A DNA stretch of 64,000 nucleotides from Escherichia coli. GTDB lineage: Bacteria > Pseudomonadota > Gammaproteobacteria > Enterobacterales > Enterobacteriaceae. The translations under genes were made by a program, and so were the position numbers. The notes under the pieces were generated by a model, which had not been told where the DNA came from, ran no database searches, and saw only the letters and a program-made list of their open reading frames with translations. Where the stretch lies: the NCBI RefSeq assembly GCF_003334305.1, contig NZ_QOWS01000018.1. The stretch is one strand, 5' to 3'. Below are positions 50,694 through 58,388 of this stretch, piece by piece (the first letter of the stretch is position 1; every line of letters starts with the position of its first letter).

Positions 50694-50744
50694 ATCATTG
50701 TTCTCCTGTTCAATGAACCACTTAGATAAGCATAGTCCGAAGAT

Positions 50745-52388
50745 ATGAAGCTGCTAGTGACATACATCAGGTGGAGTACTAAAGAGCAAGACTCAGGAGA
50801 CTCCTTAAGACGACAAACAAACCTCATTGATGCTTTCTACTCTAAGCACAAAAACGATTATTACCTTCTTCCTGCTCACAGATACGTTGATAAGGGTAAA
50901 TCTGGTTTTCACCAGCAACATAAGAATCAAGGTTCTGACTTCAGACGTATGTTTGAAAATGTTATGTCTGGGGCTATTCCAGAAGGTTCCCTGATTGTTG
51001 TAGAGAACTTTGACCGCTTCAGTAGGGCTGATATCGACACAGCTATAGATGATGTCAGGCAGATACTGAGGAAGGGAGTCTCTATACTGACTCTGGGAGA
51101 TGGTGAACTCTACGACAAGTCAGCATTAACAGACCCTGTGAAGCTGATTAAGCACATCATCATAGCTGAGCGAGCACATCAGGAATCTCTTGTTAAACAA
51201 AAGCGTATAGCTCAGGTCTGGAACCATAAAACACAGCTTGCAAGAGAACTTAAGAAGCCTATGGGTAAGCAAGCCCCCGGATGGTTAGAGCTATCAGAAG
51301 ACGGTTCACACTACATCGTTGATGAAGATAAAGCGTCACTGGTGAATATCATCTATGACAAGCGTCTTTCTGGTATGTCGATGTTTGCTATCTGCAAATG
51401 GCTAAACGAACAAGGTTACCCGACCATTAATCAGCGTAAGGTCAGAATATCCAAGACTAAGAAACCGGATGGTAACTGGTCAGCTTTAAGCGTTAAACAC
51501 ATCCTGACTTCACGAAGTGTATTAGGTTACCTTCCCGCTAAGATTTCTACAGAAGACCGTAAAACAGTGTTACGTGAAGAAATTGAAGGGTTCTATCCTC
51601 AGATTGTCACAGATTCTAAGTTTTACGCTGTACAGCAACTGTTAGAGGAAACAGGGAAGGGGAAAACATCCAGCGGTGACCACTGGTTATACGTGAACAT
51701 ACTGAAGGGGCTTATCCGTTGTAAGTGTGGGCTTGTAATGACTCCTACAGGGATACGTAAACCCGTTTATCAAGGTACTTACCGTTGCAATGGTAATAAG
51801 GAGTCCCGTTGTAGCTACGGTACAGTGTCCAGAAAGTTACTTGATACACAGCTTTGTAGTCGTCTGTTTAGCAAACTGTCACAGCTACACGATGAAGCTA
51901 CCGATACAGCTAAATTAGATGAACTACAAAGAAGATTAAACACCGTTGATGGTGAACTGGAAAAACTCACTGAGACGCTGATACAGCTTCCTAACATCAC
52001 TCAGATTCAAGAAGCACTACGGGTTAAACAGGAAGAAAAAGATGAACTGATAGTTCAGTTATCACGAGAAAAGGCGAGGGTAAAATCTGTATCAAGCTTG
52101 GATTTAAGCGGTCTTGATATGGAGTCTGTAGAGGGGAGAACTGAAGCCCAGATTATCATTAAGCGTCTGGTGAAAGAGATTGTTGTTTCTGGTAATGAAA
52201 AGCTGGTGGATATATATCTTCACAATGGAAATATGATTCGTGGTTTCCCTCTTGATGGTAAAGATGACCACACCTTAACGCTTGAAGAAGCAACCGATGA
52301 GATGCAGTCACTAGATGATATGCTTATTTTTGGTGAACCAGTAACAAGGATTTATCCTGCTGGTGATATGGAAGAGGTGGACGCTTAG
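50745..52388 (+). CDS. Large serine recombinase (integrase), 547 aa
   Basis: N-terminal resolvase catalytic motif YIRWSTKEQ, central recombinase region, Cys-rich zinc-ribbon (CKCGLV...CNGNKESRC) and coiled coil; lies next to the junction. Confidence 0.85.
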
Positions 52389-53173
52389 TATTTTTTATTA
52401 GGGTTCACTGAGTACTTTTTAAGCTTTGAAGCTACTCGACCAGCGTTACTATTAGCATTGGTGACGTTGGTTTTTTCAGCTTCTGTTAAGTCTGAATAGT
52501 CCAGCTTCCAAGCCTTATTACACTTAATCTGAGCATCGAGAATATCATTTCTGATAGCTGGAGCGTAACCGGATACATCGCTAATACTCATTAGCTCTTT
52601 GCACGATAGCATAGGCGCGTTATTGCGTTCAGTGGTCACGTTACCTGCATTCTTCTTACTGGTCACACCACCATCATTCGTAGTCGCGGCTTTTCCAGTT
52701 GCAGCCGAGATATCAGTCTGCCCCACAACAGCTTTGAAGTTAATTTCCTGAAAAGTTAGTTGGATTCTTAATCCGTTTGAAATTCCAACATCTTTAGAGG
52801 CTTTAAAACTTGTGATAATGGAATCATCAATTTTAATTCCGTCTTTACAGATGACAGAAATAATCTGCTTCTGGTCACGCCAGTTTTCCAGAGTGTCAAT
52901 GAAGTTCTCTACTAATTGACCCTGACGAGTTAATAGTAAGCTTCCTTCATAACCAACTACAACGACACCACTGATAGTGATTGTTCTGGGTGCTCTTTGA
53001 ACATTATCTGTGACGGTTTGCCCTGATTGCATGTTCTGTGTAGTCACCTGCATAGGGCTATCAAATTCCATATTTTCAGTTGCTGATAAGGTTAAGAAGG
53101 CATCTACATTATCTCTTAAGTGGAAGTAAACGCCATCTTTGCCACTGTAGCGGATTTGATTGCTAAAAATCAT
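52385..53173 (-). CDS. Hypothetical protein (262 aa), downstream of the tape-measure-like gene; own copy of a shared promoter cassette
   Basis: Track ORF 52385..53194 (TTG); I prefer ATG at 53173 preceded by AAAGGAG; no recognizable motif; position would suit a distal tail protein but unproven. Confidence 0.6.
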
Positions 53174-53253
53174 TAAATTCTCCTTTGATTTCAAAGGCTT
53201 AGTGTATTTTAATCATTTTTAACCAAGCCTTTGATATATAAGTATTTTCTCTG

Positions 53254-53322
53254 TTAAGCGTGAGCTACGTAAATTCTATTTTTCAGTGCGGGTATTAACT
53301 TTGCTTTATTCACGTAGAACAC
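53254..53322 (-). promoter_or_regulatory. Promoter/5'-UTR cassette copy 1 (about 70 bp, repeated at 55517-55585)
   Basis: 34-bp identical core TAAGCGTGAGCTACGTAAATTCTATTTTTCAGTG plus flanks; contains inverted CTACGTAAA/TTCACGTAG. Confidence 0.55.
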
Positions 53323-53329
53323 CGTTAAA

Positions 53330-55498
53330 TCAATCATCTTCTGGGAATGATGAACTTAATAACGTAGCTTCTGCATATTGGTCGTAGATATTACTGCTAA
53401 AGGTCATAAAGCTGGTTTCATCTGGTTTAATGGCAACTTCACCACCAAGTGAAACTTTCACAGGCTCCTGAATACGCTTACTTAAAGCAGAGATTTCATC
53501 CCTCAGACCCTGAATATCTGCACTCGTTAATGCTGAATCTTGCTTAATGTTGTTTAATTCTGGATGATTGAATCTTGCAATATTCATTGTGGCATTGTTA
53601 AACAATTCACCCATTGAACTAAAAATTCTACTCCATCCTTCGTTAATCACATTCGGTTTATTAGGGTCACCAGAATACACAGGATTAAAGTCACTACCCA
53701 CACCTACCCCAGATGGATGCATATTAGCGTTTTTGACTACTTCCTGATTCATAAAATCCAGTGCTTTCTTCAATGCATATAAACCAAGAGTGACACCTCT
53801 GATTTGTGGAATCATTGAAGCTAATGCTAACGCTGTTTCATAACCGTCATCAGCATAACCAATTGCAAGAGCACTACCTACACCACCAGCTACACCTTTC
53901 AGTTTTCCACCACCTTTACCAGTAGCTACCTGACCAGCCACCTGATTAGCTCTTGTACCTAACGTTGTGATTGCTCTTGTCAGGTTCATAACCCCTGTAG
54001 TAGCACTGAATAGTGTCTTTGCAGATAACGCTATAGCAAGACCTTTGACGAAGTTGATAAATCCATCACCGACTTCATCAAGTAGCTTTCGCTTAGTGTC
54101 ATCAAGGCTGTAATAGGTCTTCTTAATCTGTAGAATCCAGCCTTCAAGGTGATTGTTAAAGATACGGATGTCATCTACACCAGCTTTAAGCATGTCGATA
54201 AGTCCACCGATAGCATCACCAGCGATAGAAGAACTCATACCCATTTCACTAAGCAGGTTACTCAGGCTGGATAAGAAGCCATTTAGCTCATCCTGTGAAC
54301 CTGAGAAGATTTTCACCATCGTATCATCCCAGTTGTTAGCCAGTTTCCCTAAAGCTGTCTGAGTGCTCTTAGCGACTTCAGCCCAGCCACCCGCTTTATC
54401 AATCATCAAGCCCATCTGTTTAGCGACTTTAGGGAGAGTATCACTACTTAAAATCTTCCCGTCTTTCATCGCTTTATCAAGCTCTGTAGCAGTCATACCC
54501 AGTGCTTCAGCGAATAGCTTAAATGCACCAGCCATACGGTCACCTAACTGACCACGAAGCTCTTCAGCCTGAATCTTGCCCTTGCTCGCCATCTGCTCAA
54601 ATGCTTTCAAAATGCCGTTTAGCTCATCGTTAGAAAGCCCCATTAAGCGACTCATAGCCGTTGCATTACCAAATAGCTCCTGTGTCTGTTCCTGTGACAT
54701 AGAACCCTGAGCACCTGCTGCAAACTTAGCGTAGCTTGATAGCCCTTCAGAGATATTAAGACCTGTCTTGTCTGCTAAATTTCGAATAAATACCTCAGCT
54801 TCAGATGCTTTATCACCAAGTACAAACTTAGCGGCTCTCTGTGCGGAATCTCGTTTAAGACCTGCATTCATGATGGCCTTGTAAGCGTTAAGAGCACCCA
54901 TCACAGAGTAAAATGCACCAGATAACTTGATTGCATTGCTTGCAAGATTATTAAATGCGTCGCTTGTATTGTTAATGCTGGTGGATGTATGACCTTTAGC
55001 TTTAGCAATTGCTTCTCTGACTGAAGCATTTAACTGAGTCAGCTTCTCATTGAATTTTGAAGAATCCATTGACCCAGCTTTAGCAGATAGCCCGTAAAAC
55101 TGAGATTTGATGTATTTCTGCAAAATAGGGTCAAAGCCTTTTAGCTTAGACATATTAGCTGAGTAAGCCGCTGTGATTGCTCTGTTGCCGCTAATTCGTG
55201 GCTGTCTTGGTTGTCTAAGTGGCTTTAAAGTGTCATCAATTTCCGTTTTAATCTTAAACGCTCTAGTGTTTTTAAGACGCTGCTCAATCTTGGAAACAGT
55301 TTTATCGACATTCTTTTCCATTAGTTTGAGAGAATCATTTAAAGGCGTAGGGTTAACTCTGAATGCCTTATTTAGTCGTTTCTCAATTCTTGATGCGATT
55401 TGCATCGTTTGTTTCTCGGCTTTTTCCAAGCCTTTTAAAACTTTCTGAGAGCTAAAACTTAGCTCAATCAAAAAATCATCAACTTTAAATTGTGCCAT
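53330..55498 (-). CDS. Tape-measure-like protein (722 aa), alpha-helical Ala/Gly/Ser/Leu-rich
   Basis: Track ORF; region GLSNDELNGILKAFEQMASKGKIQAEELRGQLGDRMAGAFKLFAEALGMTATELDKAMKDGKILSSD resembles phage tail tape-measure core; RBS AAGAGGTGA before ATG. Confidence 0.6.
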   Translation of the reverse strand: MAQFKVDDFLIELSFSSQKVLKGLEKAEKQTMQIASRIEKRLNKAFRVNPTPLNDSLKLMEKNVDKTVSKIEQRLKNTRAFKIKTEIDDTLKPLRQPRQPRISGNRAITAAYSANMSKLKGFDPILQKYIKSQFYGLSAKAGSMDSSKFNEKLTQLNASVREAIAKAKGHTSTSINNTSDAFNNLASNAIKLSGAFYSVMGALNAYKAIMNAGLKRDSAQRAAKFVLGDKASEAEVFIRNLADKTGLNISEGLSSYAKFAAGAQGSMSQEQTQELFGNATAMSRLMGLSNDELNGILKAFEQMASKGKIQAEELRGQLGDRMAGAFKLFAEALGMTATELDKAMKDGKILSSDTLPKVAKQMGLMIDKAGGWAEVAKSTQTALGKLANNWDDTMVKIFSGSQDELNGFLSSLSNLLSEMGMSSSIAGDAIGGLIDMLKAGVDDIRIFNNHLEGWILQIKKTYYSLDDTKRKLLDEVGDGFINFVKGLAIALSAKTLFSATTGVMNLTRAITTLGTRANQVAGQVATGKGGGKLKGVAGGVGSALAIGYADDGYETALALASMIPQIRGVTLGLYALKKALDFMNQEVVKNANMHPSGVGVGSDFNPVYSGDPNKPNVINEGWSRIFSSMGELFNNATMNIARFNHPELNNIKQDSALTSADIQGLRDEISALSKRIQEPVKVSLGGEVAIKPDETSFMTFSSNIYDQYAEATLLSSSFPEDD

Positions 55499-55516
55499 TG
55501 TTCATATTTCACCTCT

Positions 55517-55585
55517 TTAAGCGTGAGCTACGTAAATTCTATTTTTCAGTGTGGGTATTAGCTTTACAGATTTCACGTAGCACAC
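55517..55585 (-). promoter_or_regulatory. Promoter/5'-UTR cassette copy 2
   Basis: Same repeat as 53254-53322, immediately upstream of the 722-aa gene. Confidence 0.55.
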
Positions 55586-55699
55586 ATAGGATTCGATAGA
55601 AGACTATCTCATATACAAAAAAGGAGAGTTACCGATGTCACTCGATAATCTCTCCCGTAGATTTTTACCCAACCAATTCTATTAGAAGCTAATCTCAAA

Positions 55700-55915
55700 T
55701 TAATGGTAAACGTAAGAATACATCCCATCATCACCTAAAATCTGTGCGTCACATGGTAATTTATCTAAGCACCATGAAGGAATCTTACGTACCTTTGGTT
55801 TATGTGAGGTGATAACTTGATGCTGATTTTTAATTCGTAGCTTTGGTTTAGTCTGAAGCTTTAAGTTCTCACAAACAGACTTAATAAGTTCATAGCGTTC
55901 TGTTAAATCAATCAT
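55700..55915 (-). CDS. Hypothetical protein (71 aa)
   Basis: Track ORF; 23 nt downstream of the 236-aa gene. Confidence 0.45.
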   Translation of the reverse strand: MIDLTERYELIKSVCENLKLQTKPKLRIKNQHQVITSHKPKVRKIPSWCLDKLPCDAQILGDDGMYSYVYH

Positions 55916-55938
55916 TCACCACCTCTTTTAATTCATAG

Positions 55939-56649
55939 TTAAAGTGCCTTGCTATATTTCTGAGAAATCTTCACTAACTGCTCAATATCAGCCTGCATAG
56001 CAATCTTCTTCTGCGTTTCATATGCAGAAATAAGCTCTTTCATAGCCTGAAGCTCTCTTGAGAGATACAACTTAACATTTTCAAGTTGCTTGTTACGTGA
56101 TGCCAAGATGTTCTGTCTGGCAAGTTCAGCGAGTTCTTCATCGCTCTTATTAGTCGTGTAAATAAACTGACCAGCACCCCTTGAAGCTTTAACCATCTTC
56201 ACAATTCGATATCCAGCAGGAAGACTACTAATCACGGCTGCGACGTTTTCTTGAAAAGTACCAAAACCATCATTGTCTTCGTATGTGAAGTAAACATACG
56301 GCTTCTGTGACAATTCATCCTGAATCTCAAATTCTGACGGCTCAATAGCTGATTGCATCAGGGTAACTTTACTGTAAGCATCATCTAGTTTAATACGCTG
56401 TGCTTTTAGCAGTGGGTAATATTCACGCTCAAGCTCAAGTAATGCTTCAGTTTTGCATACATCAGGCATCTCTTGAGGCTCAGGAGACACAAAGATGATT
56501 TCCTTTGGTGACATTCGGATTTCTTGCTCAAGCTTAATTCTTTCATCGTGTTCTTTACGCTGAATAGCGATAGCTGGATGTTCAGTCTGTGGCGACCAGT
56601 CACCGAAGCTATCAATCACTTTGCCATTAATGTAAATATCATTTGTCAT
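55939..56649 (-). CDS. Hypothetical protein (236 aa)
   Basis: Track ORF; no recognizable motif; downstream of a consensus promoter with about 350-nt leader. Confidence 0.6.
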   Translation of the reverse strand: MTNDIYINGKVIDSFGDWSPQTEHPAIAIQRKEHDERIKLEQEIRMSPKEIIFVSPEPQEMPDVCKTEALLELEREYYPLLKAQRIKLDDAYSKVTLMQSAIEPSEFEIQDELSQKPYVYFTYEDNDGFGTFQENVAAVISSLPAGYRIVKMVKASRGAGQFIYTTNKSDEELAELARQNILASRNKQLENVKLYLSRELQAMKELISAYETQKKIAMQADIEQLVKISQKYSKAL

Positions 56650-57008
56650 TGTTTTTTCCTCTTCTAAGCTAAAGTATTTCAGTTTTTAAAAAGCACACCT
56701 GACAGCCTATCTAAACTTAGAAGAGACTTAAAAGGCGGTTTGCCAAGTATGCTTTTTAAAAGCTGAAAAAGCCCTAGATAACTAAAACGCTATAAAGGGC
56801 TAAGGTGAAGAAATTAAAACATCTAAAGGATTCAATAACGAATGAACAAAGACTTTTCGAGATAGCCTCTCAGGTTGTATAAGAGGCCATGTAGCGAAAA
56901 GCATTGCACCTTTCAGAATGTTCGGTATAGAACATACCTCACCAACTCAGAATATCCATCCATCGGATTATTGAAATAAATAAGAGAGAAATTCTCTCTA
57001 TAATTAAA

Positions 57009-57037
57009 ATTATGTCATGCTTAAGGTTATTTGTCAA
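57009..57037 (-). promoter_or_regulatory. Near-consensus sigma70 promoter (TTGACA-17-CATAAT) reading toward the 236-aa gene
   Basis: Minus strand: TTGACA at 57032-57037, CATAAT at 57009-57014; palindrome AGAGAG-N5-CTCTCT at 56983-56999 near +1. Confidence 0.6.
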
Positions 57038-57062
57038 CAGCTTTTTAACAGATTGGTAACAT

Positions 57063-57128
57063 TTATACTTTAATAGATGCACCTGCAATCATACCAATCA
57101 ACACAAAACAGAGAATCACCAATTCCAT
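57063..57128 (-). CDS. Candidate 21-aa hydrophobic peptide, translationally coupled (TAATG) to the upstream 107-aa gene
   Basis: MELVILCFVLIGMIAGASIKV; ATG overlaps the preceding stop; not in track (too short). Confidence 0.25.
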   Translation of the reverse strand: MELVILCFVLIGMIAGASIKV

Positions 57129-57451
57129 TAATGCACCACCTTCGAATCCGTAACCAGAATATTATCGCTGTACAAAATTGCTATAGCCGCCTTGAGATAT
57201 TTTTCAGGGCTAACGCTGTATTTGTTCGTTTGCTCGACAACCAATCTTTTCATGTTGCTGTCTTTAATTGGTAGCATCATTCGAGGCTCGTTAAACTCCA
57301 CCGACTGAATAAAGTCAGAGATGCTTTCCGCATTATCAGTCATTAACTCTAACAACTTATCAAAGTCAATGCTAACACCTACATCAGTGAAAGCCTGAAT
57401 CATCATGGCGGTGTCGGTATCAATAAAAATCTGTAATTCGTAATTGTTCAT
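57128..57451 (-). CDS. Hypothetical protein (107 aa)
   Basis: Track ORF 57128..57484; I prefer ATG at 57451 preceded by AAGGAG-9nt. Confidence 0.55.
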   Translation of the reverse strand: MNNYELQIFIDTDTAMMIQAFTDVGVSIDFDKLLELMTDNAESISDFIQSVEFNEPRMMLPIKDSNMKRLVVEQTNKYSVSPEKYLKAAIAILYSDNILVTDSKVVH

Positions 57452-57606
57452 TTTTAAAATCTCCTTTTTACCAGACCTCCTCAATCGCTCTGTAACGAGC
57501 TAAACAGTCTTTTTCAGGGGTAGCCTGTACAGTGGTATTACCCACCCTAAAATAAGATAGTTTTTTGCGTCAGAATGCGATTGAGAGCGTCTGAGAAGCT
57601 GTTTTT

Positions 57607-57894
57607 CTAATTTCTCTTAAAGTCTCGGACTTGCATAAGATTTTTTGGTCTGGTATCGGCTCTGTTACCATTTCGATGGATAATTTGCTTGTTGGATTGA
57701 TAGCCATGATAAAGAAACCAGACAACATATTTCACGTAGAAAGTATATCGGCCTATATTAAATGTTTTGTTGCCGTAGTCGTCGGTGTTTATCGTGACTG
57801 ACTCTCCATCAGACCAGCACAGGGAATCACTGGATTCATCATAGATAAGGTGTTCTGCAAAATATCTTCTAACATCTTCATTCCAAGGTTTCAT
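57607..57894 (-). CDS. HNH endonuclease-like protein (95 aa)
   Basis: KYVVWFLYHGYQSNKQIIHRNGNRADTRPKNL matches the HNH_3-type pattern; ATGA overlap with upstream ORF. Confidence 0.65.
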   Translation of the reverse strand: MKPWNEDVRRYFAEHLIYDESSDSLCWSDGESVTINTDDYGNKTFNIGRYTFYVKYVVWFLYHGYQSNKQIIHRNGNRADTRPKNLMQVRDFKRN

Positions 57895-58106
57895 AAAACC
57901 TCCTCACCCCAATAACCTAATTCAATCTTGTGACGCTCAAACCATTCCGGTTTAACTGCTGTTTTCAGTACTTCATTTGGGCCAATGGCTTTAATGAAAA
58001 TATCTTTTGAGTTATGGATGTCACCGAATCCGTTTCCTTCAATCAGGAGGTCGGAGATGTAGCGAATCATTTTATCCGTGTGGTATTCAAAGGTAACGCA
58101 TAGCAT
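57891..58106 (-). CDS. Hypothetical protein (71 aa)
   Basis: Track ORF; coupled between the RHH-like and HNH genes. Confidence 0.5.
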   Translation of the reverse strand: MLCVTFEYHTDKMIRYISDLLIEGNGFGDIHNSKDIFIKAIGPNEVLKTAVKPEWFERHKIELGYWGEEVL

Positions 58107-58387
58107 TAAACCTCCAGAGACAGCTTGTGAATCTTAAGACTCAATAGACGGGCAATATCAATTTTAAAGCCGTTAAGTCCCTTCAAAGTATCTAAAGCGT
58201 CCTGAGTAATTCGGATGTGTTTACGACCTTTAGAGACTGGATATTTAAGTAAATCCGACTCAGTAACCTCTTTAGCAATTGCAAGCTGCATAACAGTCTG
58301 ATGAGGTAAGTTAGTAGCTCGTTTAATTCTGGCAAGCTCGTTAAAAGCTTCCTCTGAAATGCGGGTTAAAGTGTGTTTGTTTTTCAT
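58106..58387 (-). CDS. Ribbon-helix-helix-like small DNA-binding protein (93 aa)
   Basis: N-terminal TLTRISEEAFNELARIKRATNLPHQTVMQLAI resembles RHH (CopG/Arc) fold pattern. Confidence 0.5.
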   Translation of the reverse strand: MKNKHTLTRISEEAFNELARIKRATNLPHQTVMQLAIAKEVTESDLLKYPVSKGRKHIRITQDALDTLKGLNGFKIDIARLLSLKIHKLSLEV

Positions 58388-58388
58388 T

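Follow-up and report, generated by a model that had tools for sequence, protein, structure and literature searches.

In bacteriophage lambda, a strong and apparently constitutive sigma-70 promoter (PR') lies between the early and the structural genes and produces a short terminated leader RNA of ~200 nt (6S RNA, terminator tR'). The structural genes need read-through, which is released by Q, and further terminators are found inside the operon. The put sites of HK022 and the nut sites of the lambda N system are cis-acting RNA sites that make RNA polymerase terminator-resistant, with conserved stem-loops right after a strong promoter and before several terminators. In phages P4 and P1, a constitutive promoter makes a long structured leader, and the resulting RNA (CI RNA in P4, c4 RNA in P1) either ends transcription early or occludes the ribosome-binding site of the operon's first gene; the genes under control are early or replication and antirepressor genes. 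Lambda 6S RNA and P4 CI RNA are both made from leaders. The present analysis concerns a locus of comparable anatomy in a 64,000-nt stretch of Escherichia coli DNA (contig NZ_QOWS01000018.1, assembly GCF_003334305.1), hereafter the window. The locus comprises a promoter, the leader RNA that it would drive and an adjoining 21-codon open reading frame (ORF), and is held by an AT-rich island of ~12 kb between ymdF and wrbA (window 50700-62100).

The leader is proposed, with a probability of roughly 0.6, to act as a default-off gate on the Felix O1-like tail-gene operon of a probable phage satellite. The locus would form the junction of an upstream ('early') operon and the tail-module operon. A strong sigma-70 promoter ~24 nt past the peptide ORF would drive the leader transcript, and most transcripts would stop at an intrinsic terminator ~225 nt downstream. 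Those that read through would carry a long hairpin whose loop is predicted to pair with the ribosome-binding site of the first tail-module gene, which encodes a protein of 236 aa. Two layers, (i) termination and (ii) translational sequestration, would then control the operon, in the order 236 aa - 71 aa - tape measure - baseplate. The proposal draws directly on conservation, a coding signature, and predicted structures with their covariation; promoter activity, termination, translational repression and the trigger are inferred from these.

In total, 127 copies of the locus were gathered from BLAST or protein searches (15), IMG/VR (13) and metagenomes (99), and the locus was matched in 472 of 5426 complete E. 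coli genomes (~9%), at identities down to ~70%. A search of genome_contigs for related loci returned two loci only. The 112 copies from IMG/VR and metagenomes were fetched by an exact 18- or 20-nt core pattern, and the 15 BLAST- or protein-derived copies form the unbiased set for core conservation. The pairwise-identity profile given below was computed on these 15 copies, which were not retrieved by pattern. Three IMG/VR loci with the promoter 18-mer CTGTTGACAAATAACCTT belong to one unrelated environmental phage and were excluded from the homologues. In that phage, the exact 18-mer (-35 plus spacer) lies within the phage's own promoter-like region, a match judged to be chance or convergent.

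The promoter scan found a match to the sigma-70 consensus at 11 of 12 positions, with a TG two bases upstream of the -10 hexamer (extended -10, TGn). This is the near-consensus promoter reported in the initial annotation, and it is also conserved in related copies. All four elements of that annotation (promoter, palindrome, leader and small ORF) sit on the minus strand where it had placed them. Two matches of 11/12 were observed on both strands of the 64 kb, against 1.3 expected from shuffles. Because such a match is not unusual in 64 kb, the question of chance must be settled by related sequences. The -35 hexamer is unchanged in all 93 distinct promoter-to-core variants. The -10 hexamer is mostly CATAAT; in a minority of variants GAGATGAT or GAGAAGAT replaces ACATAAT, and the TG is kept. 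Mean pairwise identity reaches 94% in the 53-nt promoter block (ORF stop to -10), which is the best-conserved DNA at the locus when compared with 66-75% for the flanking genes (last 75 nt of the upstream 107-aa gene, 75%; peptide ORF, 67%). Further downstream, identity is 54% in the 5' hairpin and linker, 80% in the core of the leader, and 59% in the rest of the leader.

An A-rich UP-like tract (TTAAAAAGC), a feature expected at -40 to -46, lies directly upstream of the -35 hexamer. From its sequence, the promoter is predicted to be very strong, and we infer a transcription start at ~57002-57001. The conservation of the spacer and the upstream region exceeds the needs of RNA polymerase, which suggests that a regulator also binds the promoter block. 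The 8-mer TCTGTTAA, found in the block upstream of the -35, has 8 occurrences in the 11.8-kb island against 0.64 expected, a count reached in 0 of 300 shuffles, and is a candidate binding motif of an island regulator. One of its sites closely precedes the leader promoter, another closely follows the early promoter, and a further one falls within a 69-nt repeat described below. Between the leader promoter and the 236-aa gene, the promoter scan returned no other promoter-like site. Examined for a sigma-dependent pause element close to the promoter, as in lambda Q-type control, the AT-rich initial transcribed sequences (TTTAATTATAG, TGTATATATAG) contain -10-like strings, none of which has a conserved consensus.

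The leader runs for ~352 nt, from ~57002 to the ATG at 56649, which agrees with the earlier estimate of ~350 nt before the 236-aa gene. The notion of a passive spacer was not borne out: the leader is instead the most structured part of the locus, with a conserved core domain, at least one putative intrinsic terminator and a hairpin predicted to sequester the Shine-Dalgarno (SD) sequence. Its predicted folding energy is -116 kcal/mol compared with -76 for shuffles (z = -7.2), and the first 238 nt give a folding z of -5.0. Large indels and shuffled modules make the leader a mosaic, and its helices were therefore assessed module by module.

The clearest covariation predicted at the locus is that between the SD region of the 236-aa gene and an anti-SD sequence in the apical region of the long hairpin (Table 1). 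Of 87 distinct leaders, 83 give an SD:anti-SD duplex with z < -2 versus shuffles (dG -13 to -22). The pairing is maintained in at least four sequence classes (UCUCUUCUAAG/CUUAGAAGAGG, UCUUCUAAGUGU/ACACUUAGAGGA, UUCACCUCU/AGAGGUGAA, and AUUCACCUC/GAGGUGAAU), and the stem of the long hairpin is likewise preserved by several different arm sequences. Upstream of this hairpin, a transcript ending at the terminator-like hairpin listed in Table 1 would be ~225-235 nt long. In each of 101 distinct leaders, the stretch from the core to the gene holds one or more terminator-like hairpins with a T-run (range 1-5, most with 2-5). These terminators are different, shuffled modules across the copies.

The core RNA domain consists of a hairpin (helix P1), a second helix (P2), and a predicted closing helix. 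Helix P1 is present in the minimum free energy (MFE) fold of all 87 distinct cores, which hold 27 P1 sequence variants; P2 is found in 84 and the long-range closure in 82 of the 87 MFE folds. In the P1 alignment, 98.8% of cells are paired and 4 of 10 pairs have changed on both sides, with 0 of 500 shuffles reaching the covariation score. Controls in which the helix was slid gave 43-55% pairing. A leader peptide starting at the core ATG (GGTGCAATG; a 34-aa ORF in the window) was considered and rejected, and the core is regarded as non-coding because this ORF varies from 5 to 58 codons across copies and the conserved nucleotides are read in different frames. The conserved core loop has no complementary target in the window beyond chance.

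At the very start of the transcript, the initial annotation had described a perfect palindrome. This palindrome is real and is conserved as a hairpin, and its extent was underestimated, the arms being longer (8-1-8) than described. The hairpin begins 2-3 nt after the likely transcription start, and a hairpin of 6-10 bp is found at the 5' end of the transcript in all 46 distinct variants. Its alignment has 98.2% of cells paired, with a covariation score that none of 500 shuffles attained. The comparison of copies points to a conserved 5' hairpin with modest covariation, and this hairpin may protect the 5' end of the transcript or serve as a factor-binding site.

The 21-codon ORF upstream of the promoter was confirmed, with its ATG placed within the TAA of the 107-aa gene (TAATG). 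It had been noted that this ORF could be chance, and conservation of its frame in homologous elements had been set in advance as a check. The outcome was clearly positive, and chance is rejected by this conservation: the ORF is intact in 122 of 125 promoter-retaining copies, the remainder being two that are cut by a contig end and one with a deletion. The TAATG overlap is invariant in the intact copies, and the ORF stop falls 23-25 nt before the -35 hexamer across copies. Two alleles are found, one of 21 aa (MELVI[LI]CFVLIGMIAGASIKV) and one of 25 aa (M[GTM]L[IV][IV][AL]WTxLGL[FL][VC]GCW[VM]GNTVNKN), and the GxxxG motif is kept without exception in both. The 25-aa class comprises 58 distinct nucleotide sequences and is under purifying selection, with pS (synonymous) of 0.51 and pN (nonsynonymous) of 0.15 (pN/pS 0.30). 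The two other reading frames of the region carry stops. In strain TUM1886, the ORF is kept behind a different upstream gene.

Because the frame, start and stop are conserved and synonymous changes are in excess, the ORF is judged to be a real gene, predicted to be translationally coupled to the 107-aa gene. The peptide (21-25 aa, >60% hydrophobic residues) would be a single-helix membrane peptide that works by packing its helix against a second copy or against a membrane protein. As a guess, its role most plausibly lies in lysis timing or in keeping phage DNA from entering. It has no match in PHROGs, NCBIfam or a 15-billion-protein collection and is annotated in no record examined.

Table 1. 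Positions of the promoter, leader and gene features in the window.
Feature	Position	Strand	Sequence or remark
107-aa gene	57128..57451	-	WP_097343996.1; last long gene of the upstream ('early') operon
21-aa peptide ORF	57063..57128	-	MELVILCFVLIGMIAGASIKV; unannotated; hydrophobic single helix; GxxxG at G12, G16
Conserved upstream block	57038..57062	-	TGTT-N7-TGTT-N7-TGTT(GACA), 11-nt phasing as read off the sequence; near-invariant in alignments
Sigma-70 promoter	57009..57037	-	TTGACA-17-CATAAT; -35 57037-57032; -10 57014-57009
5' hairpin	56983..56999	-	DNA AGAGAGAA-T-TTCTCTCT; RNA AGAGAGAA-U-UUCUCUCU; purine-rich 5' arm, pyrimidine-rich 3' arm
Core RNA domain, ~95 nt	56823..56916	-	P1, P2 and predicted closing helix
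P2 helix	56902-56895 with 56859-56852	-	GCUUUUCG/CGAAAAGU
P1 hairpin	56890-56862	-	AUGGCCUCU...AGAGGCUAU
Core closing helix (predicted)			CUGAAAGGUGCAAUG with UAUUGAAUCCUUUAG
Intrinsic-terminator-like hairpin	56766..56802	-	GCCCUUUAUAGCGUUUUAGUUAUCUAGGGC then UUUUU; GCCC...GGGC; RNAfold dG -12.9 kcal/mol
Long hairpin	56677..56768	-	28-nt arms, 86% complementary; inverted repeat I1 and MFE folds
Anti-SD	56726-56716	-	UCUCUUCUAAG; apical region of long hairpin
SD region of 236-aa gene	56658..56668	-	CUUAGAAGAGG; complementary to anti-SD
236-aa gene	55939..56649	-	First gene of the tail-module operon; RefSeq name 'transposase'
TCTGTTAA sites	51133, 52482, 53250, 55899, 57052, 58974, 60777, 60854		8-mer of the upstream block

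The island that holds the locus is probably a satellite of Felix O1-like phages, as judged from its genes. Its 269-aa baseplate protein has 73% identity over 99% of its length to a Felixounavirus protein encoded immediately after the gene for the tape-measure protein (TMP), and the island TMP has 29-32% identity to the TMPs of the same Felixounavirus phages. The gene content includes a large serine recombinase and lacks a capsid, a terminase or a full replication set. One 11.2-kb contig from a metagenome overlaps itself by 55 nt at its ends and is therefore a circle. The sequence features of a phage satellite (PLE/PICI-like), namely an integrase, small size, helper-related genes and a circular form, are all present. 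Gene order is identical in the 13 copies whose annotation was inspected, which cover two attachment (att) sites, ymdF/wrbA and yecE (DUF72). The order is large serine recombinase, 'baseplate protein', TMP, 71-aa gene, 236-aa gene, leader, small ORF, 107-aa gene, HNH endonuclease, three small genes, ~1 kb of non-coding DNA with repeats, Dam-type methylase, and small serine recombinase.

Release of the proposed gate would most likely come from processive antitermination or another global trigger in helper infection, and not from a dedicated antiterminator fold. A dedicated alternative fold for each terminator is implausible because the terminators vary in number and sequence and another precedes the TMP gene. 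This last is a strong terminator-like hairpin (GGGAGAG-N21-CTCTCC followed by T6, ~55617-55656, minus strand) between the 71-aa gene and the TMP gene. Three candidate loading sites for an antitermination factor may be considered: (i) the conserved promoter block, which would be Q-like, (ii) the 5' hairpin or else the core, either of which would act in the manner of nut or put, and (iii) the GAGAUAGUCUUCUAUC hairpin module. This module, the hairpin GAGATAGTCTTCTATC, follows the pre-TMP terminator in the window (55595-55610, minus strand); 19 of 92 other copies have it where the leader begins, and it thus takes two positions in the operon.

Several points weigh against the proposal of a default-off gate. 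No antiterminator candidate was found, the small proteins of the island matching no family in Pfam, PHROG or NCBIfam. The invariance of the core in 112 of the 127 copies arises by construction, from exact-pattern retrieval, and the core identity among the 15 unbiased copies is the 80% given above. The P1 alignment was anchored on the helix and is biased toward structure. Covariation in the 5' hairpin is weak, given that its purine and pyrimidine arms pair at 94% even in shuffles. In addition, the same anatomy is compatible with a stand-alone small RNA (sRNA) gene.

In that alternative, the promoter-to-terminator unit is a gene for an abundant, ~225-nt trans-acting sRNA or protein-sequestering RNA with helper-phage or host targets, and the downstream terminators merely insulate the tail-gene operon. 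The promoter is strong and conserved, the core is conserved in sequence and not in structure alone, terminators are always present and often multiple, and many BLAST matches span only the promoter to ~240 nt downstream, all of which would suit an sRNA gene. The absence of any release would also fit shuffled terminators better than dedicated folds. However, the 236-aa gene has no other promoter-like site, and the covarying SD-sequestering hairpin further downstream argues that transcripts reach that region and are regulated there. The conserved loop has no complementary target in the window, and the leader has no similarity to phage genomes. A purely stand-alone sRNA is considered rather unlikely, and on this analysis the sRNA and leader readings are compatible and not exclusive. 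A second alternative is that conservation acts on the DNA, with the promoter block and palindrome forming an operator, packaging or recombination site used by the island HNH endonuclease, in terminase hijacking, or by the island invertase. The promoter block is indeed more conserved than coding DNA, it contains TGTT repeats with 11-nt phasing and the island-enriched TCTGTTAA, and genes for an HNH endonuclease and two serine recombinases lie in the island. Yet the palindrome arms change in sequence and stay complementary, and both P1 and SD:anti-SD covary; this tells against a DNA site because covariation is expected of RNA helices and not of a DNA site recognised by a protein. Conservation at the DNA level in place of RNA elements is accordingly held to be improbable, whereas binding of a regulator to the promoter block agrees with the gate and is already part of that explanation.

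The peptide could also be theorised to be the toxin of a type I toxin-antitoxin pair, with the adjacent promoter making the antitoxin RNA. Its size and hydrophobicity are like those of Ibs, Ldr and TisB-type toxins, and a strong promoter adjoins the ORF. That promoter, however, is co-directional with the ORF, lies downstream of it and fires away from it, such that its RNA would not be antisense, and no promoter-like site was found on the plus strand near 57000-57200. The ORF has no mRNA of its own and is TAATG-coupled to the upstream gene in every intact copy. On these grounds a type I arrangement is unlikely, and the toxin explanation as a whole is given very little weight. Least probable, to the point of being negligible, is the reading that AT-rich DNA holds the promoter match, the palindrome and the short ORF by accident. 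A match of 11/12 would arise ~1.3 times in 64 kb, counting both strands, but all of the features are conserved in >100 diverged copies, and the coding and structural signatures are constrained.

A more specific extension of the gate proposal may be set out, though it is doubtful. The island would represent an undescribed family of E. coli satellites parasitising virulent Felix O1-like myophages, in which the leader RNA serves as a sensor or antitermination switch and the peptide acts at the membrane to disturb helper lysis or DNA entry. The cis-acting RNA would let RNA polymerase ignore several terminators only during helper infection, and a substitute tape-measure/baseplate module would thereby be switched on.

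The 'transposase' label of the 236-aa protein finds no support in Pfam, NCBIfam, PHROG, PDB or phage matches. The search for relatives of this protein yielded none that was informative, and its predicted structure is a long helical hairpin with a small alpha/beta domain. The 236-aa gene occupies the position of the tail assembly chaperone in Felixounavirus, with no sequence similarity to that chaperone. The 184-, 93-, 71- and 107-aa proteins have no PHROG or NCBIfam match, and those of 184 and 107 aa also have no Pfam match. A 69-nt direct repeat (53254-53322 and 55517-55585, 88% identical) lies just upstream of the baseplate and TMP genes. Read on the coding strand, it includes inverted repeats (CTACGTGAA...TTTACGTAG), and it may be a repeated RNA element or a regulatory site.

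Back-to-back promoter-like sites at 58994-59059 have a layout that resembles a genetic switch: a minus-strand site, TTGACA-17-TAGTAT (59022-58994), stands at the head of the 184-aa early operon, and a plus-strand site, TTAACA-18-TATAAT (59030-59059), faces a 70-aa ORF (59151-59363) with counterparts annotated in other copies. Tandem 76-nt repeats (59484-59559 and 59579-59654; 91% identical, 95 nt apart) sit in the 1-kb non-coding stretch from the early operon to the methylase gene and could be iterons, operators or small RNA genes. In addition, 21-nt inverted repeats (60854-60874 and 62421-62441, 90% complementary) flank the gene of the small serine recombinase, which resembles DNA invertases, and the ~1.6-kb segment between them may be invertible.

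The peptide gene, the leader and the island are unannotated in the records examined and have no family match in Rfam, Pfam, PHROGs, NCBIfam or PADLOC. A comparison of 50,697 phage genomes with the 2.5-kb region and with the 91-nt promoter gave no match or spurious ones only. The only hit of the Rfam covariance-model scan of the locus was a plant miRNA at 22 bits (gathering score 110), regarded as spurious. A limited literature search found no description of the island, the RNA or the peptide. The three conserved elements, the peptide gene, the RNA leader and the island, are found together in ~9% of the complete E. coli genomes. Typing, biocontrol and therapy make wide use of Felix O1-like phages, which gives practical relevance to an island that may interfere with them. 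The leader would offer a compact model of how a parasitic element silences structural genes behind a very strong promoter until its helper arrives, and no principle is overturned by the finding.

Set against the described systems, a leader that combines a terminator with SD sequestration and a small membrane peptide are both of known kinds, whereas the island family appears to be undescribed and without a published description. The lambda Q-type layout, a strong promoter and a terminator before structural genes, is present here at the level of sequence, and the island leader resembles the PR'-6S-tR' region in the position of its promoter, in the short terminated RNA predicted from it, in the read-through that the structural genes would need, and in the further terminator-like hairpin inside the operon. 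It differs in that no Q-family protein is detectable in the island, in that the locus has no sequence similarity to any phage late region, and in the addition of a conserved folded core and SD sequestration. With HK022 put and lambda nut the likeness is in layout only, namely the stem-loops between a strong promoter and several terminators and, as with nut, a second hairpin module (GAGATAGUCUUCUAUC) present at two places in the operon; a boxA/boxB consensus is lacking, and the loops of the 5' hairpin differ between copies. The workings proposed for the island leader share with the P4 CI and phage P1 c4 RNAs a constitutive promoter, a long structured leader in a mobile element, and premature termination or a blocked first gene. 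Unlike these, the island leader heads a tail module, and no processed RNA or internal repeat of a target sequence was identified in it. Rfam includes a C4 antisense RNA family, and the island leader has no Rfam match.

The peptide, in turn, recalls LidI of PLE, gp15 of HK97 and the type I toxins Ibs and TisB in being a small hydrophobic helix from a mobile element (here 21-25 aa with GxxxG). It has no sequence similarity to any family, and its gene is not arranged as a toxin-antitoxin pair. A close parallel for the island as a whole is PLE, the satellite of the Vibrio cholerae phage ICP1. In contrast to PLE, with which it has no protein similarity and for which PADLOC and PHROG scans gave generic matches only, the island has its own tape-measure and baseplate genes, and it is a putative satellite. 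It is nevertheless like PLE in being small (11-12 kb), in carrying a large serine recombinase without capsid or terminase genes, in having structural genes related to a virulent myophage (here Felixounavirus), and in being represented by one circular metagenome copy.

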